From the NCBI RefSeq assembly GCF_051903065.1, contig NZ_CP178438.1: DNA of 64,000 nt. The stretch is one strand, 5' to 3'. Made by a program: the position numbers and the translations under genes. This stretch comes from Escherichia coli. GTDB lineage: Bacteria; Pseudomonadota; Gammaproteobacteria; Enterobacterales; Enterobacteriaceae. Each line of letters begins with the position of its first letter. Positions within the stretch are counted from its first letter, which is position 1. The notes below the pieces were generated by a model. The model saw nothing but the letters and a program-made list of their open reading frames with translations, ran no database searches and was not told where the DNA came from. Of the stretch, positions 734 through 45,672 are shown piece after piece.

Positions 734-833
734 TAAATTCCTAAAGTTGTTTTCTTGTTTGTTCAACGCTCTTAATTTTTTTCATTAACTGCTAGCATCC
801 GCTTATAACTGGATATAAATACAGGGAACGCGG

Positions 834-3800
834 ATGAAGAGTTATATCTATCAGGACGAAAAATCACATAAATTCTGGGCGGTGGAGCAGCAGGGAAACG
901 AGTTGCATATCAGCTGGGGAAAAGTTGGTACCCAAGGGCAAAGCCAGGTAAAAAATTTTGCTGATGTTGCAGCAGCGGAAAAAGCGAAACTGAAGCTTAT
1001 CGCGGAGAAAACGAAAAAAGGCTATGTGGAAAATGCTTCAGCAAACGTGCATATCCCCCCCATTACCAAAGCCACTCCTGAAGTTGAAACTTCCCCTGAG
1101 AGTAAAAACCAACGCCCCTGGCTGGCTGATGATGCGGTCATTCGGCTAACTGACGATATTAATCGATTTGCTTTTCCTCATCGCTCTCGCCCCAGAGAGA
1201 TCAATTATCTGCACAAAGATGGTCAAATATGGCAGCTCATCGCGAATAACACCAGAGCATATGATCCCGCCAACAATTACCGTTCTTATCCAGAAAACTG
1301 GCAGCAGGCTTTTGCTGAGTTACAAATGCGAGTTCAGGGTAATCAACAGACAGGGAGTGTGCAATCTGATGCAGCATTGCTCTGGAGTTTCTGGAACTCT
1401 TACTCTGCAGATGAACTGGTCGATGACTTAGTCATTCGCTGTGGTCTGGAAAGTGCCGTTGAAATTGCCCTTCTCGCTCTTCAACTTAGATATAAACCAG
1501 TAAAAGCCGACGTCACCACCATCATTCCCCCTGATCTCAAAGCAGAATCGCTACCGAACTGGCATCAACGTCTATGTCATCATCTTTCACTCGCTTCAGA
1601 AGATGAGTGGCAACGCTGTGTAGATAAGGTACTCGCGGCTATTCCCTCGCTATCCCCAGCACGGCAACCTTTTGCGGCGTTACTGATCCCTGAACGCCCG
1701 GATATCGCCAATGCTATGGCGCTACATTATGCAGATCAAAACGTTCCGGCGATGACCTGGTTAAGTATGATGGTAAGCGATGATGTTGCCCTGGCCATCC
1801 AGGAAAAATATGGTTTCCCACCGCTATATAATGATTTCCGCAAATATCTGGCTACGTTACTGGCAAATAATGGAATGCGTGGTGTAAGCCGGATTCTTCT
1901 CAAGCTACCTGTCGACTATCCCGTAAAATACACGGACCTTTTCACTCACATACACGCCAATGCTGAAAATCTTGTCAAATGGCTATGGAAAACGAATCAC
2001 CCGGATGCGATTCAAATTCTGATCCTCGGTGTAAATGGCAAGAAAAAGCACCTGGAATACTTAAGCAAAGCCTGCCAAAAACATCCCGCTGCGGCTATTG
2101 CCGCTTATGCTACTTTGCTGGCAATACATGAAAATAATGAGTGGCGTAAAGCGCTTGTCAAACTGATTACCGCCACGCCAGAGTTAGTATGCGAGGTCAT
2201 TCCCTGGGTTAATGCTAAGGCGGCAGGCATCTTATCTGAATGTCGTCCGCTGCCAATAGCTGAAGAATGTGAATATGCCACTGTGGATATGTTGCCGGAG
2301 CTGCTGGTCGCTCCACCGTGGGTAATAAATAAGAAAAAGAATGTCATACCCGTATTTGATTTACCGGTACTTCCCATTCCTGCCGTCACGGATATCACAC
2401 CAGGAATTACAGAGTTAATCAGTCATACTGACATATCCAGATTCAGTGAAATCGCGCAATATCAGGCATCACAGCAAACCTTATTTACCGACCTGCCACT
2501 AATTGAAAAAGAAAGCTGGGAGACATCTTTCATTCCTTTTACACCAGAACAACAAATTCTTTGGCAATTAGGTTTTAATGAATGGCTGCATTGCGAAAAT
2601 GACTTACATGAAAAAAAATATATACCGCAAAGCGCTGTTGATGCCTTGTTGCGCTTTGATTTTTCAGCACTAAAAGCTGAGTTTGCGAAATATCACAACA
2701 ATGCCAACAAAAGCTGGAATCTATCTGCGCTTTGTTACTTACCGGGACAACAGGCGATCTCATTTCTCAACCAAATAATCATTGAGGAGCGATATTCAGG
2801 TGAGAAAGAGATTCTGGCGGTTTTTGGTAGTACGGCCATTCCTGCGTTTATGACCTGCTTGCAACGAGATCATCAACGCCTGTGGATATTCACCCTTTTT
2901 ATTGGAGCCAGTGAACTAGCCTTACCAATGGCGCAGCGGTTACAGAAAAAAATAGCTTACAAGGATGCCGTTAATTGGCTGGCAAATAACCCGCGCCATG
3001 CCGCCGCCGGGCTACTGCCTTTGGCGCTGGGCAAACCGTGCCAAAATCGGGAATATGCCCGCCAGGCACTCCTCCTGCTAGTGAAATTAAACCAGCGAGA
3101 AACGATTGAGGAAATCGCCCAAGGATATAATCAACCTGATGTTTTAGCTGCGCTGGCAACATTATTTGATAGCGACCCACTGGAAGAATATCCTGCAAAA
3201 ATCGCCCCACTGCCCGGCTTTTATCAGTTCCCCTTATGGCGCAGACCTCGGCTTAAAAGTAACAACCTGCCTCTGCCAGATGACGCTATGCGCCACCTCG
3301 GCACAATGTTGAGCTTTCCACGCGACATTACCTCCTACGCTGGGCTGGCGATCATCAAAGAGACCTTCACCCGCGAATCACTGGCTGACTTTGGCTGGGA
3401 TCTCTACACGGCATGGACAGAAGCAGGCGCACCCGCAAAAGAGAACTGGGCATTTACCTCGCTGGGGATTCTAGGCAATGACGACACCGCGCGTAAACTA
3501 ACCCCGCTCATCCGCGCCTGGCCGGGTGAATCCCAGCATAAACGCGCGGTTTACGGGCTGGATGTGTTAGCCAGTATCGGTAGCGACATTGCGCTTATGT
3601 TGCTTAATGGCATTGCGCAAAAGATTAAATTCGTTGCATTACAGGAATATGCCAGCGACAGAATCAATATGGTCGCCGAAAATCGCGGACTGACAATGGC
3701 CGAACTGGAAGATCGCCTGGCACCGGATTTAGGGCTTGATAGCAGTGGCTCGCTAATATACTGGATTTCGGCCCCCGCAAATTCACCGTTGGTTTTGACG

Positions 3801-4636
3801 AAACCTTAAAACCTGTAGTGTGCGATGCAAACGGCAAAGTCCTGAAAGATTTACCTAAGACAAACCAGAGCGATGATAAAACACTGGCAACTGACGCAGT
3901 TAATCTCTTCAAACAGTTGAAAAAAGATGTTCGTGCTATCGCCAGCCAGCAAATTACCCGTCTGGAACAGGCTATGTGCCAGCGCAGACGCTGGACGGCA
4001 GAGCAGTTCCGCCTGTTTCTGGTGGAGCATCCGCTGGTACGTCACTTAACCCGACGGCTGTTATGGGGGGTTTATAACGATGAAAACGCCCTTATCATCT
4101 GTTTTCGCGTGGCAGAAGACAGCACTTACAGCGATGCGCAGGATGAGTTATTCACGCTGCCAGCAGGAAACATCGGTATACCGCATGTGCTGGAAATCCC
4201 CCCTGAATCCGCCGCTGCATTCAGGCAAATTTACGTTGATTACGAACTGCTTCCCCCTTTCCAACAGCTCGAACGTGGTAGTTACCACCTTGCTGATAAC
4301 GAACGTAATGTCCATGAATTGTCACGCTGGAACGGACGTCTCTGCCAGGCCGGACGCATTGTCGGGCTGGAACGCAGAGGCTGGCAACGTCTGGAAGAAA
4401 GCGGCAGCGTCTATGCGATGCGCAAATCTACCCCTTATGGTGCTCTCGAACTTGAAACAGAACCTTTTTCATTAATTTATGGCGAAACGGGGTATAGCGA
4501 CCTGCTGCCTGTCGAAAGCGTAAAAATCACCGCCCCTTATGATCGCTATGGTAAACAATCCTCACCCACTTTCTCCGTGCTCGACGACATCACCGCCAGC
4601 GAGCTGATTAACGACATTGAATCACTGTTTGATTAA
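834..4636 (+). pseudogene. molR: WGR-domain/DUF4132 protein (MolR-type), disrupted by a frameshift near 3750-3765
   Basis: ORFs 834..3809 (991 aa) and 3818..4636 (272 aa) together align colinearly with the intact 1249-aa paralog downstream; shifting frame at about 3757 restores the LDFG.RKFTV.FDETLKP motif seen in paralog 2; N-terminal WGR-like sequence MKSYIYQDEKSHKFWAVEQQ. Confidence 0.75.
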
Positions 4637-4648
4637 AAGGATTTAACA

Positions 4649-7600
4649 ATGAAAACCTATATTTATCAGGACGAAAAATCACATAAATTCTGGGCGGTGG
4701 AGCAGCAGAGAAACGAGCTGCATATCAACTGGGGCAAAGTCGGCACTAACGGGCAAAGTCAGGTAAAAAGCTTTGCTGATGCTGCGGCGGCAGAAAAAGC
4801 GGAACTGAAGCTGATTGCGGAGAAGGTGAAGAAGGGGTATGTGGAAGAATTATCTTCACCATCCCAACCCGCAATCAAAATAGAAACGATCGAAGTAGAT
4901 ACAGCTGACGTGGCAGAAACCAAAGTCGTATTTGACCAAAGTATGGTTGTTGAACCTGCTGAGACACCATGCCCGTGGCTGACAGATGATTCCACTATCC
5001 ATCTATCGGAGAAAAAGTCTCAGGGGGCCTTACCTTCCCGACGTTTTCCTGGGGATGCTGTAAGCGAACCACAAGACAGCCTCCTTATGAATTTAGGTCA
5101 GGATATTCATAATCTATCAGGAAAATTAACAACATACGATTTCAGTGCATGTTCTGCTAACTGGCAGCAGAATATCAATGAAGCTCTCGCTAATGGTCCA
5201 CTTTCTCCTGCTGCGTTGGCTGTACAGGTTGTTCTGGTTTCACGTAAATTCTGGGGCGAATGCCCTGAACTCATGGATGAAATTGTCTATGTCTACGGAC
5301 TAGAATTTGCCGTGGATATGTTTATTGCCATGCAATATATCTCGTTCGATTGCACTTATCACAGAACAAGCATACACATAACTTTTCAGCCATTATTAAT
5401 CCACGCACATTGTGTTACCCCCTTTGACGTTCGACTGCGTAAACATTTGGCTCTAGCAGAAGAAACTTTGTGGCAACGCTGTGTAGATAAATTCATTACA
5501 GCTTTGCCTGATATTCCTCCCGTTCAACAACCGATGGTAGCGCTAATGCTACCGGAACGCCCGGAGATTGCAGAAGAAGTCGCACGACGGTTACTGGAGC
5601 AGAAAAATGGCCACACTGTTGAATGGCTGAAACTTGTTGTACAAGAATCTTCCTTGCTCAAAGCACTGGAATCTTATTGCGCGTACGACCTTTTTAATGA
5701 CTATTACCATGGTTGCATCTGGAATGTCACCGTTTTGCAGGAGCAAGGGATTGCCGGAATCGCTCGCTTCGCCCCCTATGCTTATGCTGATCTTTGCGGA
5801 AGTATTCTCGCAGAGATCAATCACCCACAAGCATTAATGCTACTTATACGTGTGTCTGGCAAAACTAAACGCTGCCATGAACGAATGACTACGGCTTGCG
5901 CTGCGTTCCCACACGCAGCACTGGCAGCACTGGCGGAACTTCTAGTGCAAAAAGAAGAGAATAGTTGGCGCATTATGCTAATGACGATGCTTATCTCGCA
6001 ACCGACACTAGCAGAACAGGTCATTCCCTGGCTTTCGACACCCGCAGTTGCAGTGCTGAAATCATGCCAGCAACAACTGACACAGCCCTCAAACCATGCC
6101 TGCGTCGATCTACTGCCTGCCGTATTAGTCTCACCGCCCTGGCTTTCGAAAAAGAAAAAATCTGTAATGCCGGTATTGGATTTAACGCCATTACCGTTGG
6201 AGTCATGCTGTACATTGACCGAGACGGCAGAAAAAGAGATTCATGCAAGGCATCGCTGGCACGCACATCAAATAGACATCGGCCAAAAAGAGGATATTCA
6301 GAACTACCTGGCACGTCTGGGTTTCAATCGCTGGAATAATGGCCAGTATATGAAAGCGCCTGATGCTGCTATAGAGCTCTGGCAAAGGGGAGATTATTCC
6401 GCGCTGATCAGCGAATTTAAAACCTTCTGGCACTCCTATCAACGGGAATGGCAGCTTTACATGTTAGCCGCCCTGCCTATCGAAAAGACAGCGCAGGCGT
6501 GGAATGTCCTCAGTAAAGAGCCACACGTCGGTGTCGAGTTTGTCATGACGCACCTGCAACTCACTGGGTTACAGGGTTTTATTCACTCCTTTTCACGCTA
6601 CCCGCAAGAAGCTCTGCCTGTAGCACAATATTTTGCGGCTATCGAATTAGCGCCACTGATCGCCCGTGCCTTCAACAAACTCAAAACCCTACGACAAGAC
6701 GCCCGTAGCTGGCTGCTAAAATACCCGGAACACGCCATAACCGGCCTGCTGCCTTCGGCGCTCGGCAAAGCCGGTGAAGCACAGGATAACGCTCGCGCTG
6801 CCTTACGTATGCTTACCGAAAACGGTCATCAGCCATTACTGCAAGAAATCGCCCGGCGTTATAACCAGCCGGAAGTAACCGACGCGGTGAACGCTCTGCT
6901 TGCGCTCGATCCCTTAGATAATCACCCGACAAAAATCCCCACTCTTCCGGCCTTTTATCAGCCATCGCTCTGGACGCGCCCGGTATTAAATACAAACGCC
7001 CAATCACTGCCAGATAGCGCACTCCAGCACCTCGGTGAAATGCTCCGCTTCCCTCAGGAAGAGGCCCTGTATCCGGGATTATTGCAGGTGAAAGATGCCT
7101 GTACCGCCGACTCACTGGCTGAATTTGCCTGGGATCTGTTTACCGCCTGGTTGACTGCGGGCGCACCGTCGAAAGAGAGTTGGGCGTTCACTGCGTTAGG
7201 CGTTCTTGGTAACGATGACACCGCCCGCAAACTGACGCCATTAATACGCGCCTGGCCTGGTGAATCCCAGCATAAACGCGCCACCGTTGGGTTGGATATT
7301 CTCGCCGCTATCGGTAGTGATATCGCCCTGATGCAGCTTAACGGTATTGCCCAGAAACTGAAATTCAAAGCATTACAGGAGCGGGCAAAAGAAAAAATTG
7401 CCGACATTGCCGAAAGCCGCGAACTCACGGTGGCAGAGCTTGAAGATCGGTTAGCACCGGATCTCGGTCTGGATGATAACGGTTCGTTGCTGCTGGATTT
7501 CGGCTCACGCCAGTTCACCGTCAGCTTTGATGAAACCTTAAAACCGTTTGTGCGTGATGTTTCTGGCAGCCGTCTGAAAGACCTGCCCAAACCAAACAAA

Positions 7601-8398
7601 AGCGATGATGAATCACAGGCGAACGATGCTGTTAACCGCTACAAATTGCTGAAAAAAGATGCGCGTACCGTCGCCGCCCAGCAGGTAGCAAGGCTGGAAT
7701 CCGCCATGTGCCTGCGCCGCCGCTGGTCGCCGGAAAACTTCCAGCTCTTCCTGGTTGAGCATCCGTTGGTTCGCCACTTAACCCGCCGTCTGATTTGGGG
7801 TGTTTATAGCGCCGAAAACCAGCTACTGGCTTGCTTTCGCGTAGCGGAAGATAACAGCTACAGTACCGCTGACGATGATCTTTTCACCCTGCCGGAAGGC
7901 GATATCTCTATCGGCATTCCTCACGTTCTGGAAATATCACCAACGGATGCTGCCGCCTTTGGTCAGCTTTTTGCCGACTACGAACTGCTACCACCGTTCC
8001 GTCAGCTTGACCGTAACAGTTACGCCCTGACAGAAGCCGAGCGCAACGCCAGCGAACTGACCCGCTGGGCAGGCAGAAAATGCCCGAGCGGTCGGGTCAT
8101 GGGGCTGGCGAATAAAGGCTGGATAAAGGGCACCCCGCAGGATGGAGGCTGGATCGGCTGGATGATCAAACCTCTCGGTCGCTGGTCGTTAATCATGGAA
8201 ATCGATGAAGGTTTTGCGGTAGGCATGTCGCCAGCCGAACTGAGTGCCGAGCAGCTCTTAAGCAAGCTGTGGCTATGGGAAGGCAAAGCAGAAAGCTATG
8301 GCTGGGGGAGTAATTCAACACAGGAAGCGCAGCTCTCCGTACTCGATGCCATCACCGCCAGCGAGCTGATTAACGATATTGAAGCTCTGTTTGAATAA
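4649..8398 (+). CDS. WGR-domain/DUF4132 protein, intact paralog of molR (1249 aa)
   Basis: Tracked ORF; N-terminal about 65 aa nearly identical to copy 1; conserved C-terminal motif ASELINDIEALFE; start 12 bp after the end of copy 1. Confidence 0.8.
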   Translation: MKTYIYQDEKSHKFWAVEQQRNELHINWGKVGTNGQSQVKSFADAAAAEKAELKLIAEKVKKGYVEELSSPSQPAIKIETIEVDTADVAETKVVFDQSMVVEPAETPCPWLTDDSTIHLSEKKSQGALPSRRFPGDAVSEPQDSLLMNLGQDIHNLSGKLTTYDFSACSANWQQNINEALANGPLSPAALAVQVVLVSRKFWGECPELMDEIVYVYGLEFAVDMFIAMQYISFDCTYHRTSIHITFQPLLIHAHCVTPFDVRLRKHLALAEETLWQRCVDKFITALPDIPPVQQPMVALMLPERPEIAEEVARRLLEQKNGHTVEWLKLVVQESSLLKALESYCAYDLFNDYYHGCIWNVTVLQEQGIAGIARFAPYAYADLCGSILAEINHPQALMLLIRVSGKTKRCHERMTTACAAFPHAALAALAELLVQKEENSWRIMLMTMLISQPTLAEQVIPWLSTPAVAVLKSCQQQLTQPSNHACVDLLPAVLVSPPWLSKKKKSVMPVLDLTPLPLESCCTLTETAEKEIHARHRWHAHQIDIGQKEDIQNYLARLGFNRWNNGQYMKAPDAAIELWQRGDYSALISEFKTFWHSYQREWQLYMLAALPIEKTAQAWNVLSKEPHVGVEFVMTHLQLTGLQGFIHSFSRYPQEALPVAQYFAAIELAPLIARAFNKLKTLRQDARSWLLKYPEHAITGLLPSALGKAGEAQDNARAALRMLTENGHQPLLQEIARRYNQPEVTDAVNALLALDPLDNHPTKIPTLPAFYQPSLWTRPVLNTNAQSLPDSALQHLGEMLRFPQEEALYPGLLQVKDACTADSLAEFAWDLFTAWLTAGAPSKESWAFTALGVLGNDDTARKLTPLIRAWPGESQHKRATVGLDILAAIGSDIALMQLNGIAQKLKFKALQERAKEKIADIAESRELTVAELEDRLAPDLGLDDNGSLLLDFGSRQFTVSFDETLKPFVRDVSGSRLKDLPKPNKSDDESQANDAVNRYKLLKKDARTVAAQQVARLESAMCLRRRWSPENFQLFLVEHPLVRHLTRRLIWGVYSAENQLLACFRVAEDNSYSTADDDLFTLPEGDISIGIPHVLEISPTDAAAFGQLFADYELLPPFRQLDRNSYALTEAERNASELTRWAGRKCPSGRVMGLANKGWIKGTPQDGGWIGWMIKPLGRWSLIMEIDEGFAVGMSPAELSAEQLLSKLWLWEGKAESYGWGSNSTQEAQLSVLDAITASELINDIEALFE

Positions 8399-8407
8399 GG
8401 AAAGAGC

Positions 8408-11400
8408 ATGGACAAGGAATTACCGTGGCTGGCGGATAACGCCCAAGTGGAACTGAAATATAAAAAAGGCAAAACACCACTCAGCCATCGCAATTGGCCG
8501 GGCGAACCGGTGCCTGTTATCACTGAAAGCCTCATCCAGACACTGGGTGATGAATTGCTACAAAAAGCAGAGAAGAAAAAAAACATTGTCTGGCGTTATG
8601 AAAATTTTTCACTGGAGTGGCAGTCCGCCATTACGCAGGCCATCAACTTGATCGGCGAACACAAACCCTCAGTCCCGGCCCGCACAATGGCGGCGCTAGC
8701 CTGTATCGCGCAAAATGACAGCCAACAGTTGCTCGACGAAATCGTCCAACAAGAGGGGCTGGAATATGCGACTGAGGTGGTGATTGCACGCCAGTTTATT
8801 GCACGGTGTTATGAAAGTGATCCTCTGGTAGTCACATTGCAGTATCAGAACGAGGACTATGGCTATGGTTATCGCTCAGAAACCTATAACGAATTCGATC
8901 TCCGACTGCGTAAACACCTCTCTCTGGCAGAGGAAAGCTGCTGGCAGCGTTGCGCCGACAAACTCATTGCCGCACTGCCAGGAATAACCAAAGTTCGCCG
9001 TCCTTTTATTGCGCTGATCCTCCCGGAAAAGCCTGAAATAGCCAATGAACTCGCCAGTCTTGAAAGCTCCCGGTCAAGTCTCCATTCAAAGGAGTGGTTA
9101 AAGGTCGTTGCTACTGATAATACGGCGGTAAAAAAACTCGAACGATACTGGGGCCTGGACGTATTTAGCGATCGCGAAGCCAGCTACATGTCACAAAAAA
9201 ACCACTTCGGCTACGCGGCCTGCGCCGCCCTTTTGCGCGAACAAGGACTGGCAGCCATTCCGCGCCTCGCGATGTATGCCCATAAAGAAGATTGCGGCAG
9301 TCTGTTGGTACAAATTAACCATCCGCAGGTCATCCACACCTTGCTACTGGTGGCTGATAAAAACAAACCCAGCCTGCAACGTGTGGCTAAATACAGTAAA
9401 AACTTCCCCCACGCGACGCTCGCGGCACTGGCAGAACTGCTGGCGTTAAAAGAACCACCAGCCCGCCCTGGTTATCCAATCATCGAAGACAAAAAGCTGC
9501 CTGCCCAGCAAAAAGCACGCGATGAATACTGGCGTACGCTGTTACAAACGCTGATGGCATCGCAGCCACAACTGGTAGAAGAGGTGATGCAGTGGTTAAG
9601 TACTCAAGCCCGGGCAGTACTGAATAGTTATTTATTGGCACCGCCCAAACCGGTTATTGATGGCACCGATAACAGCAATCTGCCTGAAATCCTCGTTTCA
9701 CCACCGTGGCGTAGTAAGAAAAAAATGACAGCTCCACGTCTTGATTTGGCACCGCTCGAATTAACCCCGCAAGTTTACTGGCAACCAGGCGAACAAGAGA
9801 GGCTTGCCTCCACTGAGTCTGCCCGTTATTTCAGCACGGAATCTCTTGCGGAACGCATGGAACAAAAAAGTGGGCGAGTTGTATTACAGGAACTGGGTTT
9901 TGGGGATGATGTATGGCTGTTTCTGAATTATATACTCCCCGGAAAACTGGATGCTGCACGCAATTCACTCATTGTTCAGTGGCATTACTACCAGGGGCGG
10001 GTTGAAGAGATCCTGAATGGCTGGAACTCCCCGGAAGCACAATTAGCAGAACAGGCGCTCCGCAGCGGTCACATAGAAGCGTTAATTAACATATGGGAAA
10101 ATGACAACTACTCACGTTATCGTCCGGAAAAGAGTGTCTGGAACCTGTATTTATTGGCACAGTTGCCGCGTGAGATGGCTTTGACCTTCTGGCTGCGTAT
10201 CAATGAGAAAAAACATCTGTTCGCGGGTGAGGACTATTTTCTCAGTATCCTCGGATTGGATGCGCTACCAGGTCTGCTGTTGGCTTTTTTACATCGTCCA
10301 AAAGAAACATTTCCGTTAATTTTAAATTTTGGCGCAACAGAACTGGCCCTGCCCGTTGCCCGCGTCTGGCACCGTTTTGCGGGCCAGCGTAATCTGGCTC
10401 GCCAGTGGATTTTACAATGGCCGGAACATACGGCTACTGCACTTATCCCTCTTGTCTTTATCAAACCCAGCGATAATAGCGAAGCCGCATTACTTGCCCT
10501 GCGTTTACTGTACGAACAGGGACATGGCGAGTTGCTGCAAACCGTGGCAAACCGCTGGCAACGCGCTGATGTATGGCCTGCCCTGGAGCAGTTGCTTAAA
10601 CAGGGTCCAATGGACATTTACCCGGCACGCATTCCAAAAGCCCCTGATTTCTGGCATCCGCAAATGTGGTCCAGGCCGCGCCTTATCACTAATAATCAAC
10701 CTGTTACCGATGACGCTCTGGAAATTATCGGCGAAATGCTGCGCTTTACCCAGGGGGGACGTTTTTATAGCGGTCTGGAACAACTGAAAACGTTTTGCCA
10801 GCCACAAACGCTGGCCGCTTTTGCCTGGGATCTCTTCACTGCGTGGCAACAAGCTGGTGCCCCCGCAAAAGACAACTGGGCATTTCTGGCGTTAAGTCTC
10901 TTTGGTGACGAAAGCACGGCTCGGGATCTGACGACACAGATCCTCGCCTGGCCACAAGAAGGCAAATCTGCCCGTGCTGTCAGCGGCCTGAACATCCTTA
11001 CCCTGATGAATAATGATATGGCGCTGATGCAGCTGCATCATATATCGCAACGGGCTAAATCCCGCCCCTTACGTGATAACGCGGCGGAATTTCTTCAGGT
11101 GGTCGCAGAAAATCGCGGGCTAAGCCAGGAAGAGCTAGCGGACAGATTAGTCCCAATCCTGGGCCTTGATGATCCGCAGGCGTTGAGTTTTGATTTTGAT
11201 CCCCGGCAGTTTACCGTTCGCTTCGATGAAAACCTCAACCCGGTTATCTTTGATCAGCAAAACGTTCGCCAGAAAAGTGTTCCCCGGTTGCGTGCCGATG
11301 ACGATCAACTGAAAGCGCCCGAGGCACTGGCCCGACTAAAAGGGCTAAAAAAAGATGCTACTCAGGTGAGCAAAAACCTGCTCCCGCGTCTTGAAGCTGC

Positions 11401-12040
11401 CCTACGTACCACCCGACGCTGGTCGCTGGCAGATTTTCATTCTCTGTTTGTTAATCATCCCTTTACCCGCCTGGTTACCCAGCGATTAATATGGGGGGGT
11501 TATCCGGCAAATGAACCGCGTCGTTTACTCAACGCCTTTCGTGTGGCCGCAGAGGGGGAGTTCTGCAATGCGCAGGATGAGCCCATTGACCTTCCTGCGG
11601 ATGCTCTGATTGGCATTGCCCACCCGTTAGAAATGACAGCAGAAATGCGCAGTGAATTTGCACAGCTTTTTGCCGATTACGAAATTATGCCGCCTTTTCG
11701 CCAGTTGTCGCGCCGCACGGTGCTGCTCACACCTGACGAGTCAACCAGTAACAGCCTGACTCGCTGGGAAGGTAAATCCGCTACCGTTGGGCAACTTATG
11801 GGAATGCGATACAAAGGCTGGGAATCAGGCTATGAGGACGCATTTGTCTATGACCTGGGTGAGTACCGGCTGGTCCTTAAGTTTTCACCCGGTTTTAACC
11901 ACTACAATGTTGATAGCAAAGCGCTAATGAGCTTCCGTTCTCTTCGAGTGTACCGTGACAATAAATCCGTCACTTTTGCCGAACTTGATGTGTTTGATTT
12001 GAGAGAGGCGTTAAGCGCACCTGACGTCATTTTCCATTAA
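8408..12040 (+). CDS. yehI: DUF4132 protein, third paralog, lacking the N-terminal WGR module (1210 aa)
   Basis: Tracked ORF; begins at the PWLADNA motif that is about residue 95 of the other two paralogs; start 9 bp after the stop of paralog 2; shares the conserved central and C-terminal blocks (HPLVRHLTRRLIWG-like, DLFTAW..AGAP). Confidence 0.8.
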   Translation: MDKELPWLADNAQVELKYKKGKTPLSHRNWPGEPVPVITESLIQTLGDELLQKAEKKKNIVWRYENFSLEWQSAITQAINLIGEHKPSVPARTMAALACIAQNDSQQLLDEIVQQEGLEYATEVVIARQFIARCYESDPLVVTLQYQNEDYGYGYRSETYNEFDLRLRKHLSLAEESCWQRCADKLIAALPGITKVRRPFIALILPEKPEIANELASLESSRSSLHSKEWLKVVATDNTAVKKLERYWGLDVFSDREASYMSQKNHFGYAACAALLREQGLAAIPRLAMYAHKEDCGSLLVQINHPQVIHTLLLVADKNKPSLQRVAKYSKNFPHATLAALAELLALKEPPARPGYPIIEDKKLPAQQKARDEYWRTLLQTLMASQPQLVEEVMQWLSTQARAVLNSYLLAPPKPVIDGTDNSNLPEILVSPPWRSKKKMTAPRLDLAPLELTPQVYWQPGEQERLASTESARYFSTESLAERMEQKSGRVVLQELGFGDDVWLFLNYILPGKLDAARNSLIVQWHYYQGRVEEILNGWNSPEAQLAEQALRSGHIEALINIWENDNYSRYRPEKSVWNLYLLAQLPREMALTFWLRINEKKHLFAGEDYFLSILGLDALPGLLLAFLHRPKETFPLILNFGATELALPVARVWHRFAGQRNLARQWILQWPEHTATALIPLVFIKPSDNSEAALLALRLLYEQGHGELLQTVANRWQRADVWPALEQLLKQGPMDIYPARIPKAPDFWHPQMWSRPRLITNNQPVTDDALEIIGEMLRFTQGGRFYSGLEQLKTFCQPQTLAAFAWDLFTAWQQAGAPAKDNWAFLALSLFGDESTARDLTTQILAWPQEGKSARAVSGLNILTLMNNDMALMQLHHISQRAKSRPLRDNAAEFLQVVAENRGLSQEELADRLVPILGLDDPQALSFDFDPRQFTVRFDENLNPVIFDQQNVRQKSVPRLRADDDQLKAPEALARLKGLKKDATQVSKNLLPRLEAALRTTRRWSLADFHSLFVNHPFTRLVTQRLIWGGYPANEPRRLLNAFRVAAEGEFCNAQDEPIDLPADALIGIAHPLEMTAEMRSEFAQLFADYEIMPPFRQLSRRTVLLTPDESTSNSLTRWEGKSATVGQLMGMRYKGWESGYEDAFVYDLGEYRLVLKFSPGFNHYNVDSKALMSFRSLRVYRDNKSVTFAELDVFDLREALSAPDVIFH

Positions 12041-12418: not shown

Positions 12419-12527
12419 TATACTCTAGATAATTCAAGTCGCAGCACATGCAACTTGAAGTATGACGAGTATAGCTTTATTAAAGGGGGAAGCGGTTTTC
12501 CCCCTTAGATGCGTTTCAATTTGCCCG

Positions 12528-12617
12528 TTACTTCAACAAATCAATCAACCGTAACAGAGCCACTAATAACTCCAGTACGGCAATGAGCACGATTAACTTT
12601 TGTGTCAGCGTGTCCAT
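12528..12617 (-). CDS. zorO: Type I toxin, 29-aa hydrophobic peptide MDTLTQKLIVLIAVLELLVALLRLIDLLK
   Basis: Hand translation of the minus strand: ATG at 12617-12615 preceded by AAGGAG Shine-Dalgarno, stop TAA at 12530-12528; matches the ZorO/ZorP peptide as I recall it; assignment of O versus P to copy 1 versus copy 2 is arbitrary. Confidence 0.75.
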   Translation of the reverse strand: MDTLTQKLIVLIAVLELLVALLRLIDLLK

Positions 12618-12798
12618 CCGCTCTCCTTATTAAGGAGCGCAACACCAGCACCTTACCCTTACACTGCCTGTCGATACTGGTTTACGTATGTTGGTACGAA
12701 ACGTTGCTCTCCGGATCAGGGCACCGCCTGCGGCACCACCCGTCCAGCAGCCAGGACTTAAAATTGGTCCGATCCGGCACAACCTCCCAACGGGCAGG

Positions 12799-12826
12799 AT
12801 TATAAATCTCATTCACTGAATTGCAA
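12799..12826 (-). promoter_or_regulatory. Predicted sigma70 promoter for the toxin mRNA (gives a 5' UTR of about 174 nt)
   Basis: Minus-strand -10 TATAAT (plus 12799-12804) and -35 TTGCAA (12821-12826) with 16-bp spacer; TSS predicted near 12791. Confidence 0.5.
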
Positions 12827-12849
12827 TGGAGTGTGGATATGGTTATAAT
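12821..12849 (+). promoter_or_regulatory. Predicted sigma70 promoter for the antitoxin sRNA
   Basis: -35 TTGCAA (12821-12826), 17-bp spacer, -10 TATAAT (12844-12849). Confidence 0.6.
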
Positions 12850-12855
12850 TTATTC

Positions 12856-12938
12856 GTTGGTACGAAATGTTGCACAATCAGCAAGTTAGCGTCACTGTAG
12901 TAAATAAAAGAACCTGCCTCACCAGCAGGTTTTTTTAT
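12856..12938 (+). ncRNA. orzO: Antitoxin small RNA (OrzO-like), about 80 nt
   Basis: Bounded by the consensus promoter and an intrinsic terminator; nt 12856-12873 (GTTGGTACGAAATGTTGC) can pair over 18 nt (one G-U) with the toxin 5' UTR encoded at 12689-12706. Confidence 0.7.
12912..12937 (+). terminator. Intrinsic terminator of the antitoxin sRNA
   Basis: Stem ACCTGC / GCAGGT, loop CTCACCA, followed by TTTTTTT. Confidence 0.75.
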
Positions 12939-13135
12939 TTTCTGCGATCTACTTTCCAGATATTTTTTGCCAATAGCCCACCATAAATATTCACATCCCG
13001 GTCAAATGGTGCGTTGAATATAAAATCGATGAACTTATAAATAAACATGAGTTATATGATGAATTAATAAAAACAGTAATCATTTTATTAAAGGGGGAAG
13101 CGGTTTTCCCCCTTAGATGCGTTTCAATTTGCCCG

Positions 13136-13225
13136 TTACTTCAACAAATCAATCAACCGTAACAGAGCTACTAATAGCTCCAGTACGGCAATGAGCACGG
13201 TTAACTTTTGTGTCAGCGTGTCCAT
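13136..13225 (-). CDS. zorP: Type I toxin, 29-aa hydrophobic peptide MDTLTQKLTVLIAVLELLVALLRLIDLLK
   Basis: Hand translation; ATG at 13225-13223, stop at 13138-13136; differs from copy 1 by one residue (T9 versus I9). Confidence 0.75.
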   Translation of the reverse strand: MDTLTQKLTVLIAVLELLVALLRLIDLLK

Positions 13226-13406
13226 CCGCTCTCCTTATTAAGGAGCGCAACACCAGCACCTTACCCTTACACTGCCTGTCGATACTGGTTTACGTATGTT
13301 GGACCACGATGTTGCACTCCGGATCAGGGCACCACCTGCAGCACCACCCGTCCGGTAGCCAGGACTTGAAATAGGTTCGATCCGGCGCAACGTCCCAACG
13401 GTCTGG

Positions 13407-13434
13407 ATTATAAATCTCATTATCTTAATTGCAA
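13407..13434 (-). promoter_or_regulatory. Predicted sigma70 promoter for the second toxin mRNA
   Basis: Same architecture as copy 1: minus-strand -10 TATAAT (plus 13407-13412), -35 TTGCAA (13429-13434). Confidence 0.5.
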
Positions 13435-13457
13435 CGGGGTCCAGCCGTGGTTATAAT
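13429..13457 (+). promoter_or_regulatory. Predicted sigma70 promoter for the second antitoxin sRNA
   Basis: -35 TTGCAA (13429-13434), 17-bp spacer, -10 TATAAT (13452-13457). Confidence 0.6.
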
Positions 13458-13463
13458 TCGTTC

Positions 13464-13546
13464 GTTGGAACACGATGTTGCACAGGCTGTGGTGTTAGGC
13501 CTGAAAATAGTAAATAAAAGAACCTGCCTCACCAGCAGGTTTTTTT
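13464..13546 (+). ncRNA. orzP: Antitoxin small RNA (OrzP-like), about 80 nt
   Basis: Promoter plus terminator; 13464-13483 (GTTGGAACACGATGTTGCAC) is complementary to the UTR segment encoded at 13298-13317 with one mismatch. Confidence 0.7.
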
Positions 13547-13547
13547 A
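13522..13547 (+). terminator. Intrinsic terminator of the second antitoxin sRNA
   Basis: Stem ACCTGC / GCAGGT followed by TTTTTTT. Confidence 0.75.
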
Positions 13548-13657
13548 TTTACTATGATCTGCTTTCCAGATATTTTTTGCTCAAACAACTAATGCGCCAA
13601 ACATTTATTGCGCGTAAAATATCGTTTATTTCATTAATACATTTCAGGGATGAATAT

Positions 13658-39661: not shown

Positions 39662-40855
39662 TCAGCGTGGTTGCAAACAGTTATCTTCTTTCCAGCCGTA
39701 CAACCACTCCATGCCGCGATAAAATTCTGCCTGCGATTTCCCTTTCCACAGCAGATTACGTACCTGGCGTTCTACCCCTGCGGCGTGGTAAACCCGCCCC
39801 ATTTCACGGGTCGACCAGACGATGCGCGCGGTGCGCGGAATTCGTACCGACTCATACAGCGCAAAGGCCTGCGCCGCATCACCCTCACACTGCGCCAGCG
39901 CCTTACCCAGCGTTACTGCATCTTCCAGCGCCATACAGGCTCCCTGCGCCATATATTGCGCCACCGGATGGGCCGAATCGCCCACAAGCGTTATGCGCTT
40001 CGTTCCCCACTTCGCCACCGGTTCACGGTCAGCGGTTGACCAGCGTCGCCATGAAGTCGGTTTATCCAACATCTGGCGCGGACGGGGGTGAATCCCTTCA
40101 AAGTAAGAGAGCACTTCCTCTTTACTACCATCCTTCACGCCCCACTCTTCCTGCTGGCGGCTGTGGAATGTTACCACCAGGTTATACTGCTTGCCGCCGC
40201 GCAAAGGGTAATGCACCAAGTGACAATGCGGCCCCGCCCACAGTACCGGTGCGTTAATGCGCAAATCTTCCGGCATATCGGCACGATCGATAACCGCACG
40301 GTAGACAACATGTCCGGTGACACGCGGCGCATCGCCCAATAAGCTCTGGCGCACCACTGACTTCACGCCGTCACAGCCAATCAGAATATCGCCGGTCCAG
40401 CTATTGCCGCGATCGTCAAACACGGTGACATCGTCTTCCGTCTCGCGAATATCCACGACGTTGGTGGAGGTGTGATATTCCACGTCCGGATGCGTCAGTA
40501 CCGCTTCCCACACCGAGGCGTGAATATCAACCCGGTGGATCACCGCGTAAGGGCCGCCGAAATGGTCACGAAAGGCCTGCCCGGTTTCAATGCACACCAC
40601 TTCTTCGGCGTTCACCGCATCCATCATGGTAATGTGATCGGTAAACACCGCGCGCTGGCGGGCAACTTCGCCGACGCCGAGGCTGTCCAGCGCCGAAAAC
40701 GCATTTGGCCCCAACTGGATGCCCGCGCCAATCTCACCGATCTCATGCGCCTTTTCCAGCAGCACCACTTTGATCCCCAGGCGGGCCAGTGACAGCGCAG
40801 TTGCCGCACCGCCGATCCCGCCTCCCACAATTACTGCGCGTGTCACTTTCGTCAT
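39662..40855 (-). CDS. mhbM: FAD-dependent aromatic monooxygenase, probable 3-hydroxybenzoate 6-hydroxylase
   Basis: FAD-binding GxGxxG motif VIVGGGIGGAATALSL; last gene of a gentisate-pathway cluster. Confidence 0.7.
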   Translation of the reverse strand: MTKVTRAVIVGGGIGGAATALSLARLGIKVVLLEKAHEIGEIGAGIQLGPNAFSALDSLGVGEVARQRAVFTDHITMMDAVNAEEVVCIETGQAFRDHFGGPYAVIHRVDIHASVWEAVLTHPDVEYHTSTNVVDIRETEDDVTVFDDRGNSWTGDILIGCDGVKSVVRQSLLGDAPRVTGHVVYRAVIDRADMPEDLRINAPVLWAGPHCHLVHYPLRGGKQYNLVVTFHSRQQEEWGVKDGSKEEVLSYFEGIHPRPRQMLDKPTSWRRWSTADREPVAKWGTKRITLVGDSAHPVAQYMAQGACMALEDAVTLGKALAQCEGDAAQAFALYESVRIPRTARIVWSTREMGRVYHAAGVERQVRNLLWKGKSQAEFYRGMEWLYGWKEDNCLQPR

Positions 40856-40869
40856 TATAGTTCTCCTGG

Positions 40870-41517
40870 TCAGGCTGAAATTTTATCTTGTTGATTTTCT
40901 GGCGCTGCGGCAATGAACGCTGGCAGCTGTGTGCAGGCGTCGTACACCGCTTTGCAGCGTGGATACCCGCTCAAATCGCAGTTCATGCGTAGCGCGTTCG
41001 CCCACTGCGGGACAAGGCAGCAATCTGCCAGCGTCGGCGTCTCGCCCACACAAAATTGCCCCGACTGGTTCTGGCGCAACAGTTGTTCCACCGCGCTTAA
41101 CCCTTGCTGGATCCAGTGCGCATACCAACGTTTTTTTTCTTCTTCACTGACGTTCAGTTCTTCGGTCAGGTAGCGCAGCACGCGCAAGTTATTCAATGGA
41201 TGAATATCACAAGCAATGGCATAGACAATTTCCAGCACCTTGTTGCGGGCCGGCTCTTCCTGCGGCACCAGCGGAACTTGCGGGTAGTGCCTCTCCAGCC
41301 AGTCAATAATCGCCAGCGATTGTCCGAGTGATTCGCCCTCGTCAGTCAGCAGCGTCGGCACCAGCCCGACCGGATTCATCCGCCGATAGGCCAGTTCATT
41401 TTGCTGACCAATACGGATATTCACCCCTTCGGTCTGGTAATTAATGCCTTTCAGCGCCAGCGCAATGCGTACCCGGTACGACGCTGAACTATTAAAAAAA
41501 CTGTACAGCTTCATCAT
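40870..41517 (-). CDS. mhbI: Maleylpyruvate isomerase (zeta-class glutathione S-transferase fold)
   Basis: GST-like N-terminus MKLYSFFNSSASYRVRIALALKG; cluster context. Confidence 0.65.
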   Translation of the reverse strand: MMKLYSFFNSSASYRVRIALALKGINYQTEGVNIRIGQQNELAYRRMNPVGLVPTLLTDEGESLGQSLAIIDWLERHYPQVPLVPQEEPARNKVLEIVYAIACDIHPLNNLRVLRYLTEELNVSEEEKKRWYAHWIQQGLSAVEQLLRQNQSGQFCVGETPTLADCCLVPQWANALRMNCDLSGYPRCKAVYDACTQLPAFIAAAPENQQDKISA

Positions 41518-41522
41518 GCACC

Positions 41523-42224
41523 TCAGACAATCTTCACCGCGATAGGCGTTAAGCCCTCGACGTTGCCTGTGATCACATCACCTTTCACTACCGGGCCAAC
41601 CCCTTCCGGCGTACCGGTGAAGATCAGATCGCCCGGTTGCAGCTCAAAGAAGCCTGACAGATAGCTGATGGTTTCATTCACCGACCAGATGAGATGGCGA
41701 ATATCGCTGCGCTGATGATCTTCGCCGTTAACCTGTAACCAGATTGGCGCATTATCAATACCGCCAATATCGCGGGCTTTGTGCAGCGGCGCGATGGGCG
41801 CTGAGAGATCAAACGCTTTACCGATTTCCCACGGGCGGCCCATCTGGCGCATTTCCATTTGACGGTCACGCCGAGTCATATCAAGACCCGTGGCATAACC
41901 CCAGACATATTCATGGGCGTGTTCCAGCGGGATATCGCTGCCTTTTTTACCAATCGCCACCACCAGTTCAATTTCGTAATGGTAGTTATCGGTCTGTGCC
42001 GGATACGGCAGCGCCAGCGTTTCACCAGCGGCAACCGGAACAACGGCATCCGCCGGTTTGCAGAAGAAGAATGGCGGTTCACGATCCGGATCAAAGCCCA
42101 TTTCGCGGGCGTGAGCGGCATAGTTACGTCCGACGCAGTAAACGCGGCGCACGGGGAATTGTTCATCACTGCCAACAACCGGTACGGTAACGGGCGCTTG
42201 CGGTTCGAATACGTATTGAGTCAT
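41523..42224 (-). CDS. mhbH: Fumarylpyruvate hydrolase (fumarylacetoacetate hydrolase family)
   Basis: FAH-family sequence; cluster context. Confidence 0.65.
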
Positions 42225-42238
42225 TTTTCTCTCCTAAA

Positions 42239-43267
42239 TTAATAACGCGCTTCGCGGAACAGCCCCAGGGCTTCTTGTACCGGTCTGTCCGAAAAACTAA
42301 ATAAAACGGAATCTTGCGTGGTCTGGAACGACACGCCATGCCAGGTCGGCACCACGAAGATATCTTTTGCACTAAAGCTGAAGGTTTCATTGCCGATGAT
42401 GACCTGCCCGCTACCTTCCACCACATGGTAGATGGTGCTGTCAGTGGTACGCGCAACGCGTGAGGCAAACCCTTTCGGCAGCAGTTGCAGGAAAGCGCCC
42501 ATCGACGGCATCGGATAGCCGCCGGTGACCGGGTTGACGTAGCGCATTTTGTAGCCATCCCACTCGTCGGCATCGCCCAGTCGGGTTAAATCGTGCAGCA
42601 CTTCGCGGCTGCGGTCATAACGATAGTTAAAGATCGGCGAGGAGTTCCCCGTCTGATGCCGCAGCGGCAACATATTGGCAGCGTAACGCGGCAGATAATC
42701 TCCCTCTTTACGCGTTACCGGTTGTTGCTCTTCCGGATAATCTTCGGCAAAACCGCAGCCCAGAATATTCACTAATGGCAGATCCAGCCCATCGAGCCAG
42801 ATAACCGGTTCGTCGCCAGGGTTACCGTGATCGTGCCAGCGCCACTGCGGGGTCAGGATAAAATCGCCTTCATTCATTGGCGTGCGTTCGCCATCAACGG
42901 CGGTAAATGCCCCTTTGCCTTCAACAATAAAACGCAGCGCCGACTGATTATGACGATGACTCGGTGCCACTTCGCCCGGCATGATCAGTTGCAAACCGGC
43001 ATATAAAGTCGCGGTAATGGAAGACTGCCCGCGCAGCGCCGGGTTTTCCAGCACCAGCACGCGGCGCACGGCCTCTTTCGCACCAATCAGGCCGCCGCTC
43101 TCCAGTAGCAGCGGGCGGATCTCCTGATAATTCCAGTACGCTGGCGCACAGTTAGCGTTGGGCGTTTTCGGCACCAGATGGTGCAGTGACTCCCACAGCG
43201 GGGTCAGGTTTTGCCCGGAAATATGCTGATAAAATTGCTCGCGGCTATTTTGATTGTTATCAGTCAT
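42239..43267 (-). CDS. mhbD: Gentisate 1,2-dioxygenase (bicupin)
   Basis: Cupin metal-binding region [14 protein letters not shown]; size 342 aa. Confidence 0.75.
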
Positions 43268-43278
43268 TGGGATGCTCC

Positions 43279-44637
43279 TTATTCGTTCACAACGCCTGCG
43301 CGAGGCAGTGAGTCAGGGACAGAGGTCGACTGGCGAACCACGGTAATCAGCAGGGTTAACATCACCGCACTGATCGCCGCAGGCACAGCGATAATGAAAA
43401 ACAGGGTGTCGAAAGAGAAATTCATCGCCATCATCACGCCGCCAGACAGCGAACCAACAATCGCGCCGCAGCGGCCGATAGCATTTGACCAGCTCACGCC
43501 CGTGGCGCGACTTTGTGTTGGATAAAGTGTTGCGGTCAGCGCATTCAGCCCCACCTGCGATCCGCTAATGCCAATGCCAGTGCCGAAAATCGCCAGCGCC
43601 ATCAACCATAATCCATCCTGGCTTAAGCCAATCATCACGATGCATATAGCGCCTATGGCATAGCTCAGCGCCAGCACGCGGAAAGGATTGAACTTATCCA
43701 TCAGCACACCCAGCGCCAGCGCGCCTAACGTACCACCAATCTGGAACGCGGCGGTGACCCAGGACGCGTGTTGCAGGTCGATGCCGCGATGGTTCAGTAG
43801 CGTCGGCATCCAGCTTGAGAGCAGGTAAATAATCAGCAGGCTCATAAAGAACACTACCCACAGCATCAACGTGATGGGTAACTGACGTCCCATAAACAGT
43901 TGACGAATGCTGCCTTTTGTAACGGAGGCTGATTCAATGAGATAAAAGTGGGTATCGACATAACGCTCGCGGGTGATGGCGCTGACGGTTTTCGCAATCA
44001 CCGCCTGCGGTAGCTGGCGGCGCACCTGCCAGCGTGGCGATTCCGGCAGAACTACCAGCAGTGCGACAAACAGCATCAGCGGTAACACGCCCCCCAACAC
44101 CAGAATGCCGTGCCAGCCAATCACCGGCACCAGCTGCGCACTGACAATCCCGCCAAACGCCGAACCCAGCGTAAAGCCGCAAAACATCAGCGTCACCAGC
44201 GCGCCGCGGCGGCGGGCAGGCAGATACTCCGAGGTCATGGTGATGGTGTTCGGCATCGCGCCGCCCAGACCCAGGCCGGTGAGAAAGCGCAGGAAGACCA
44301 GCGTTTGCAGATCCGGTGAGAAAGCCGAGGCGAGGCTTAACGCGCCAAACAAAAAGACGCACAGCTCAATCACCCGCTTGCGACCAAAGCGATCGGACAA
44401 CGGGCCACAAAGCAGTGCGCCTGCGGTTAATCCTAGCAGACCCGCGCCAAAAAGCGGGGCGAGATCGCCTGCGGTGAGTTGCCAGTGAGTGCGAATATCA
44501 GGGGCGATAAATCCGATAGCCGCGGTGTCAAAACCATCGAGCATTACCACCAGAAAACAGCAGATGATAACGCGCCACTGCATCTTGCCGACCGGAGCAG
44601 CATCGATAAGTGCTTGTAAATCACGTCGTTGAGTCAT
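43279..44637 (-). CDS. mhbT: MFS transporter, probable 3-hydroxybenzoate/aromatic acid importer
   Basis: Twelve-helix MFS-like hydrophobic profile; cluster context. Confidence 0.65.
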
Positions 44638-44763
44638 AGTAAATGCCTCAGTGCAGGTAAGGTAGATGTTTCTTTTGTTTTGTATATGTTGCGATATTGT
44701 GATTAAAGAGATGAGATGTACAATGGCATTTCGGGCAGAGAGATAACCTGGAGGTTATGGCAA

Positions 44764-45672
44764 ATGGCGAACTGGGCGCAAAAATTAAAACTACATCACC
44801 TTGAAATGCTGGTGGCGCTGGGTGAACAGGGCAATCTAACCCATGTCGCACGAATGATGAATATCACCCAACCTGCGCTTTCGAAATGGTTGTCACAACT
44901 CGAAGATGAGATTGGAATCACACTTTTTGAGCGGCACAGCAAAGGATTACGTCCGACTGAAGGCGGCAAATTGTTATTGCAACATGCCCAACGGTTAATC
45001 AATGACATGGAGCGATCGCAACATGAACTGGCCCGTTTTAAACAAGGTGGACTGGTCGGCAGTCTGAAAATTGGCTGTTCTCCCGTCGCCACTGACTGCG
45101 TATCCCAGGCGATTTTGCATTTGCTTACGAAGATGCCAACTCTACACCTGAATATCGAAGAGAAGGTGATGACCCCATTGCTGCAAGATCTATTGGCAGG
45201 TTCTGTCGATGTGGTCGTTGGGCGAATTGGCGGTCGCGCATTGCAGCTGCCACTGAATTATCAGGTGCTGTACACCGAGCCAGTATGCTTTGTCGCCCGC
45301 CCTGAGCACCCACTGGCGAAATACGCCACCCTCAGCTGGAATGATCTTGCCAACTGGCGCTGGATCGTCTGGCCGACGGGTACCCCCATTCGCATTAGTA
45401 TTGATAATGCGCTGGTAGACCACGGCGTAATGCTGCCAGAAAACACGATTGAGTCGGCGTCGATGAACGTCAGTACCAACCTGTTACAAAGCAGCGATAT
45501 GATCTCTATTTTGTCATTACGCCTGGCGCAACGTTATGCCAGCCAGGGACAACTGGTGATACTCAACCTGCCAAAGATAGAACAGAAAGGTAGCGTCGGT
45601 GTGTTCTGGCGCAATAACGAAACGCCTTCTTATGCTTTAAGTCAGTTTCTGCACTTTTTACAGCAGAATTAG
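44764..45672 (+). CDS. mhbR: LysR-family transcriptional regulator, divergent from the catabolic operon
   Basis: N-terminal HTH LEMLVALGEQGNLTHVARMMNITQPALSKWL; GGAGG Shine-Dalgarno 9 nt before the ATG. Confidence 0.7.
   Translation: MANWAQKLKLHHLEMLVALGEQGNLTHVARMMNITQPALSKWLSQLEDEIGITLFERHSKGLRPTEGGKLLLQHAQRLINDMERSQHELARFKQGGLVGSLKIGCSPVATDCVSQAILHLLTKMPTLHLNIEEKVMTPLLQDLLAGSVDVVVGRIGGRALQLPLNYQVLYTEPVCFVARPEHPLAKYATLSWNDLANWRWIVWPTGTPIRISIDNALVDHGVMLPENTIESASMNVSTNLLQSSDMISILSLRLAQRYASQGQLVILNLPKIEQKGSVGVFWRNNETPSYALSQFLHFLQQN

Follow-up and report, generated by a model that had tools for sequence, protein, structure and literature searches.

The genes known as molR in Escherichia coli K-12 (formerly molR_1/2/3, now yehF, b2115, and the pseudogene yehH, b4499) belong to the WGR/DUF4132 family and are located between metG and yehI. 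The K-12 gene has been described as 'disrupted in K12', with a promoter activated by BglJ-RcsB (PMC3950696), and is listed in the LexA regulon (PMC6590174). In Deinococcus, the genes of a WGR protein (DR2173) and of a DUF4132 protein (DRA0166) are strongly upregulated upon depletion of DdrO, the repressor of the DNA damage response (PMC8533742). Literature searches found no functional study of DUF4132, yehI or yehLMPQ, although the array carries the label 'molybdate regulator'. Here we describe the first of three tandem members of this family (copy 1) in a stretch of 64,000 nucleotides of an E. coli chromosome (contig NZ_CP178438.1), hereafter the window. Copy 1 is split by a frameshift, and the favoured explanation, to which we give a probability of about 0.9, is that a 2-bp duplication, arising in one E. 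coli lineage on an allele with a CTG>CTA substitution, inactivated it and made it a young pseudogene.

Locus organisation and comparison with K-12

The first 25 kb of the window are 100% identical to the chromosomes of strains 23CRST027 and 23CRST031, both from human faeces in Ecuador, and nearly so to that of ECNB21-M121, isolated from meat in China. The plus strand carries, in order, the 3' end of metG, copy 1, copy 2, yehI, yehK, yehLMPQ and further core genes, so that copy 1 lies in the metG-yehI-yehK-yehLMPQ locus, where a MolR/YehI-type gene with WGR and DUF4132 is expected (Table 1). According to Pfam, copies 1 and 2 possess both WGR and DUF4132, whereas YehI has DUF4132 without WGR; among the neighbours, YehL is an AAA_5/MoxR-type ATPase, YehM contains DUF5682, YehP a VWA domain and YehQ a SWIM domain. 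The WGR domain of copy 1 (PF05406, E=1.2e-17) is N-terminal, at residues 8-69 (nt 855-1040), and a WGR protein of the PDB, 2ra8, matches copy 2. In copy 1 repaired by removal of the frameshift, DUF4132 (PF13569, E=1.8e-49) would occupy residues 1000-1183 (nt ~3833-4384); in the actual gene it is not part of the WGR polypeptide, being encoded in another frame and past the stop codon at 3807-3809.

The original prediction called copy 1 molR, but the counterpart of K-12 molR is the 3' half of copy 2, to which it aligns at 95% identity, and not copy 1. K-12 has two paralogs where the window has three and is missing copy 1 altogether, which researchers working on molR or yehI should know. K-12 molR is also in pieces, but as a result of different lesions, independent of the one in copy 1 of the window. 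Across 5426 complete E. coli genomes, copy 1 was covered over at least 80% of its length in 1629.

The frameshift in copy 1

Positions 3750-3773 of the window read TCG CTA ATA TAC TGG ATT TCG GCC, while intact copy-1 orthologs read TCG CTG ATA CTG GAT at this site and copy 2 reads TCG TTG CTG CTG GAT TTC GGC. The original prediction had recognised two extra nucleotides by comparison with copy 2, and both of the readings that it gave are exact; the informative comparison, however, is with the orthologous copy-1 alleles and not with the paralog. An alignment of the window allele with nine other alleles places the extra bases at 3756-3757 and reveals no other indel over the whole gene. This insertion is not a multiple of three and leads to a stop 17 codons further on, as expected for a frameshift pseudogene, and no second lesion or other stop was found in copy 1.

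The predicted division of the gene into open reading frames (ORFs) of 991 and 272 codons was confirmed. The first of them ends in GSLIYWISAPANSPLVLTKP followed by its stop codon. The next frame is open from position 3743, reads NILDFGPRKFTVGFDETLKPVV, and continues to the normal C-terminus at 4636; as had been claimed, it is intact and carries the conserved LDFGPRKFTVGFDETLKP. Deletion of the two bases from copy 1 yields an uninterrupted ORF of 1266 codons. The length of 1263 residues proposed earlier for the intact protein was wrong because the 991-residue product ends in 16 out-of-frame residues, and the correct sum is 975 native residues plus 291. Intact copy-1 genes are 3801 nt long in strains 2824, YZMc3-1, XJ34, PapRG-06-5 and EC416, and 3798 nt long in strain 573. 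Intact alleles, among them the gene of WP_021556966.1 from strain 2824 and a 1266-residue ORF on the metagenome contig QZLR01000520.1, share 97-98% DNA identity with copy 1 of the window and its length once the two bases are removed, but do not have the AT duplication.

Occurrence of the frameshifted allele

Comparison of the site in other isolates, which had been proposed along with the original prediction, located a 64-mer spanning the lesion in 3 of the 5426 complete genomes, from two continents (Ecuador and China), with copy 1 flagged 'frameshifted' in all three by the Prokaryotic Genome Annotation Pipeline (PGAP). About 340 genomes of the same set have the in-frame allele in an otherwise identical 64-mer. 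The ATATA allele is thus private, among complete genomes, to the lineage of 23CRST027 and ECNB21-M121. A literature search on the sequence type of the carriers yielded nothing useful. In a collection of 15 billion proteins, the exact 991-residue protein was read from 15 contigs (9 by another count), and the exact 272-residue protein was counted on 34 contigs and is indexed in 52 blocks. Altogether, the frameshifted allele recurs in over 20 additional assemblies of isolates and metagenomes, which were produced by different assemblers. They include at least six NCBI isolates (GCA_949766195.1, GCA_905397515.1, GCA_958327555.1, GCA_022969925.1, GCA_014892375.1 and GCA_014330325.1), at least seven ENA metagenome assemblies (megahit, SPAdes) and Logan short-read assemblies of public read sets.

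This recurrence in independent sequencing and assembly bears on the alternative, raised in the original prediction, that the two additional nucleotides arose as an error of sequencing or assembly and that copy 1 is intact, in which case the site would read CTAATACTG. Frameshifts in single assemblies are frequently errors, and the two Ecuadorian genomes come from one study. The identical allele, however, is found in the unrelated complete genome from China and, as the exact 991- and 272-residue products, in the NCBI, ENA and Logan assemblies, and duplication of a dinucleotide outside a homopolymer is atypical of long-read errors. Assembly error is effectively refuted and can be dismissed for practical purposes.

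Origin and age of the allele

Metagenome contigs were scanned for a sequence with A at 3755 and no insertion, the hypothetical intermediate, and one contig, QZLR01000520.1, contained it. It aligns with the window over 10.7 kb with a single indel, the AT at 3756-3757, and between ~1750 and 7500 the two sequences are near-identical. The alleles thus form a series from the common CTG ATA CTG through the intact CTA ATA CTG of QZLR01000520.1 to CTA ATA TA CTG of the window. It follows from this series that the lesion is a plain 2-bp tandem duplication, ATA to ATATA, which occurred after a synonymous G>A substitution, and every stage of its origin can be traced: the common allele, a synonymous variant of it and finally the duplication. 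Replication slippage would explain the duplication most simply. A mutation templated by a paralog or a nearby repeat was considered and rejected: neither strand of the first 13 kb has a further occurrence of CTAATATAC, and copy 2 and yehI differ at the site. Nor does the site have the properties of a phase-variable contingency locus with simple-sequence repeats, as it comprises only 2.5 AT units, with no variation in length among carriers and a uniform 1.5 units in non-carriers.

Between the window and the carrier contigs that cover the region fully there are 0-2 substitutions in 3955 nt, and ECNB21-M121 differs by three single-nucleotide polymorphisms over 13.8 kb. This near-identity points to one young lineage. 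The ratio of nonsynonymous to synonymous substitution rates (dN/dS) is 0.18-0.27 when the repaired window allele is set against intact alleles; comparisons of intact alleles with each other give 0.12-0.20. The preference of the original prediction for a recent single lesion over long-standing decay is therefore well founded, given one indel, no other stop, these dN/dS values and the similarity of the carriers. Otherwise near-identical carriers of the frameshift are separated by an insertion sequence in the gene of the fimbrial usher yehB (L001 561-3437, upstream of the window), which is split by IS1A in 23CRST027 and intact in ECNB21-M121.

Differences between copy-1 alleles are strongly clustered along the gene, and for this reason the alleles are regarded as mosaics. 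The window allele has about 20 private substitutions relative to the nine other alleles, nine of which fall within the 53-bp tract 1507-1559. This tract looks like the product of a short recombination or gene-conversion event with a donor outside the window; a paralog was rejected as the donor, since the tract has no match elsewhere in the window. Six of the nine private substitutions in 1507-1559 alter four codons.

Several observations weigh against the young, clonal pseudogene that we favour, or limit how far it can be traced. The private substitutions outside 1507-1559 (seven nonsynonymous and five synonymous) are too few to separate constraint from relaxation. The exact repaired protein is absent from the 15-billion-protein collection, and the immediate ancestor is therefore known just at the lesion site and in the 3' two-thirds of the gene. 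A Logan protein of 1240 residues (P0021), which clusters with the 272-codon ORF, was considered as the ancestor and rejected, being a different mosaic allele with 176 differences. On two ENA metagenome contigs from one study (L022 and L023), the frameshifted copy 1 is joined to a divergent 3' half of copy 2 and yehI, equivalent to 6733-8636 of the window and 1.5-4% different from it. These contigs may be chimeric; if they are not, the allele has recombined onto a second haplotype and may have a somewhat greater age or mobility than a single clone would. Finally, the 991-residue WGR protein could retain some activity, by analogy with YehF, the WGR-only fragment of K-12 that is annotated as a coding sequence.

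Predicted effect on the protein

Residues 916-1266 have homologs in Burkholderia, Massilia, Myxococcales and actinobacteria, with alignments that span 99% of this region at 40-52% identity. Invariant or near-invariant residues are located both before the break (D45, R46, P49, D50 and G57 in model numbering) and after it (L61, D62, G64, R66, F68, F72, D73, E74 and L76). An AlphaFold2 model of residues 916-1266 has a mean predicted local distance difference test score (pLDDT) of 92 and a predicted template modelling score of 0.86. The model contains a sheet of three strands (59-62, 67-72 and 78-81); the break, which follows residue 60 (Ile975), interrupts the first of them, and the 272-codon ORF has its start at residue 80, within the third. 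Judged by this strand position, the cut is not at a domain boundary, although the Pfam model of DUF4132 begins no earlier than residue 1000.

Translation initiated at the regular start codon would leave the native frame after Ile975, add 16 unrelated residues and terminate at 3807-3809. The product would keep the WGR domain and the long helical middle of the protein, and would lose the last 291 residues with most of the C-terminal module and all of DUF4132. Since the break is inside a conserved beta-strand just upstream of DUF4132, neither piece is expected to work alone, and neither the 991-residue piece nor any reinitiated 272-residue piece is expected to fold into a working unit. Loss of copy-1 function is thus the probable outcome, as far as it can be read from the sequence. 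Such loss might be tolerated because two intact paralogs, which are likely to be redundant with copy 1, lie directly downstream. About 830 nt of mRNA would be left untranslated, and Rho-dependent polarity on copy 2 and yehI might be an additional consequence.

It is conceivable that the gene is not broken but functionally split, with the 991-residue WGR protein and a 272-residue DUF4132 protein, reinitiated at GTG 3818, acting together or separately. The spacing between the stop and the GTG (8 nt) is short enough for termination-reinitiation, and the whole Pfam DUF4132 match lies inside the 272-codon ORF. In Deinococcus, WGR and DUF4132 are carried by separate proteins (PMC8533742), and the annotation of K-12 YehF as a coding sequence also speaks for a functional WGR-only product. 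However, no Shine-Dalgarno sequence was seen before GTG 3818, and the conserved module reaches at least 60 residues upstream of the break, and the 272-codon ORF is without the invariant R, F, F-D-E and L of strands 1-2. The cut also falls inside a beta-sheet modelled with a pLDDT of 93-98, and the split arrangement is confined to one young lineage. A functional split gene is accordingly considered highly improbable, and inactivation of copy 1 remains the preferred explanation.

Still more improbable, to a degree close to exclusion, is that the lesion is a recoding site at which the ribosome shifts by -1 or +2, so that some full-length protein is still made. The two frames overlap over 3743-3806 and a shift anywhere in this interval would join them; in a +2 slip, peptidyl-tRNA-Ile could move from ATA 3756-3758 to ATA 3758-3760 with perfect pairing, which would restore the wild-type SLILDFG. 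Decoding at the site could be slowed by its CUA and AUA codons, which E. coli uses rarely. The out-of-frame state, however, is derived and limited to one young lineage. Every other allele is in frame, and so is the immediate precursor, which means that a recoding signal is not conserved; the need for a shift, which programmed frameshifting would have conserved among orthologs, exists in just the three carriers among the complete genomes. No X XXY YYZ heptamer was seen by eye in 3743-3806, no Shine-Dalgarno-like stimulator is visible at the site, and RNA structure downstream (3762-3850) is not significant (z = -1.3). We know of no efficient +2 shifts at such sites.

The lesion is thus best regarded as an ordinary, recent and lineage-restricted pseudogene mutation, already annotated 'frameshifted' by RefSeq. 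It may serve as a lineage marker, and it is also an annotation issue, as the two ORFs should be counted as one pseudogene.

Promoter region and lesions elsewhere in the array

A LexA-box-like sequence precedes copy 1, and in K-12 the region upstream of yehF, which is homologous to the promoter region of copy 1, has AACTGGATAAAATTACAGGG at the same position. The strict LexA pattern CTGT-N8-ACAG has no match in the window, the box before copy 1 having CTGG. The position shared with K-12 yehF/molR suggests SOS control of the whole array, and the box may act in this way in the present strain too.

The array comprises two or three copies across E. coli, and disabling lesions of many kinds are common in copy 1, copy 2 or yehI; lesions also occur in yehK, yehL and yehP. 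Copy 2 is disrupted in strain 2824 and frameshifted in YZMc3-1; XJ34 has stops in copy 2 and yehP; an IS4 element is annotated in the matched interval of FDAARGOS_944; E5 combines a frameshift in copy 1 with a stop in yehI, and AR17.2B has a stop in yehI. O157:H7 has a disabling lesion of its own. In an evenly spread sample of eight genomes, at least one paralog is annotated as disabled in three, and two more have lesions in yehL or yehK, although part of these annotations may reflect sequencing errors. Other genomes in which the copy-1 ortholog is disabled by small lesions resemble the window in that yehI or copy 2 persists, but the mutations and their positions differ.

These lesions could be taken to mean that selection repeatedly favours inactivation of members of the array, for instance on account of the cost of an active copy, and that the frameshift of copy 1 is one instance of adaptive loss. 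More generally, there might be recurrent and possibly selected inactivation of an SOS-controlled (LexA-box) WGR/DUF4132 array next to the MoxR-AAA+/DUF5682/VWA/SWIM operon yehLMPQ. In that case the array would be a fast-turnover conflict or stress module, for which a copy number of two or three, mosaic alleles and frequent knock-outs are the norm. Both proposals appear unlikely, though less so than a split gene. Frequent neutral loss is expected from the large target that three long, redundant paralogs present to mutation, and some of the annotated lesions may be assembly errors; for these reasons selection is not claimed. Moreover, the intact alleles are under purifying selection (dN/dS 0.12-0.20), no phenotype is known, and the allele itself is very rare (3/5426). 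For copy 1, a tolerated pseudogene of recent origin is preferred.

Table 1. Positions of copy 1, its lesion and other features discussed in the text
Feature	Position in window	Strand	Remarks
LexA-box-like AACTGGATATAAATACAGGG	807-826	+	7 nt between its end and the start codon of copy 1; predicted promoter/operator of the array
Copy 1, frameshifted WGR/DUF4132 gene	834-4636	+	One 'frameshifted' DUF4132 pseudogene in identical RefSeq records (PGAP)
Upstream ORF of copy 1	834-3809	+	991 codons: 975 native and 16 out-of-frame (3759-3806); TAA at 3807-3809
Synonymous G>A (CTG>CTA, Leu974)	3755	+	Earlier than the insertion; G in 8/8 other sampled alleles, A also in intact QZLR01000520.1 (L031)
Two extra bases, AT/TA tandem duplication (ATA to ATATA)	3756-3757	+	Placement ambiguous within 3756-3760
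Native-frame continuation, Leu976 to stop	3761-4636	+	+1 register; remainder of the conserved C-terminal module, with Pfam DUF4132
272-codon ORF (mechanical call)	3818-4636	+	GTG start 8 nt past the upstream TAA; begins at Val995; called a separate DUF4132 gene in other assemblies
Paralog copy 2	4649-8398	+	Intact, 1249 residues, WGR and DUF4132; own AAGGA Shine-Dalgarno sequence
Paralog yehI	8408-12040	+	Intact, 1210 residues; DUF4132 only
ZorO/ZorP ORFs, 29 residues	12528-12617 and 13136-13225	-	
OrzO-P small RNAs	12863-12936 and 13471-13546		Rfam

Other features of the window

Two tandem zor-orz type I toxin-antitoxin units are located between yehK and yehL (12476-13580). Such a system is known from O157:H7 (PMC2887945); the units are absent from K-12 and unannotated in the RefSeq record. 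At ~39662-45672, dusC and yohJ flank a cluster for the degradation of 3-hydroxybenzoate and gentisate (mhbT, gtdA, maiA, a monooxygenase and a LysR regulator) that is apparently an accessory island.

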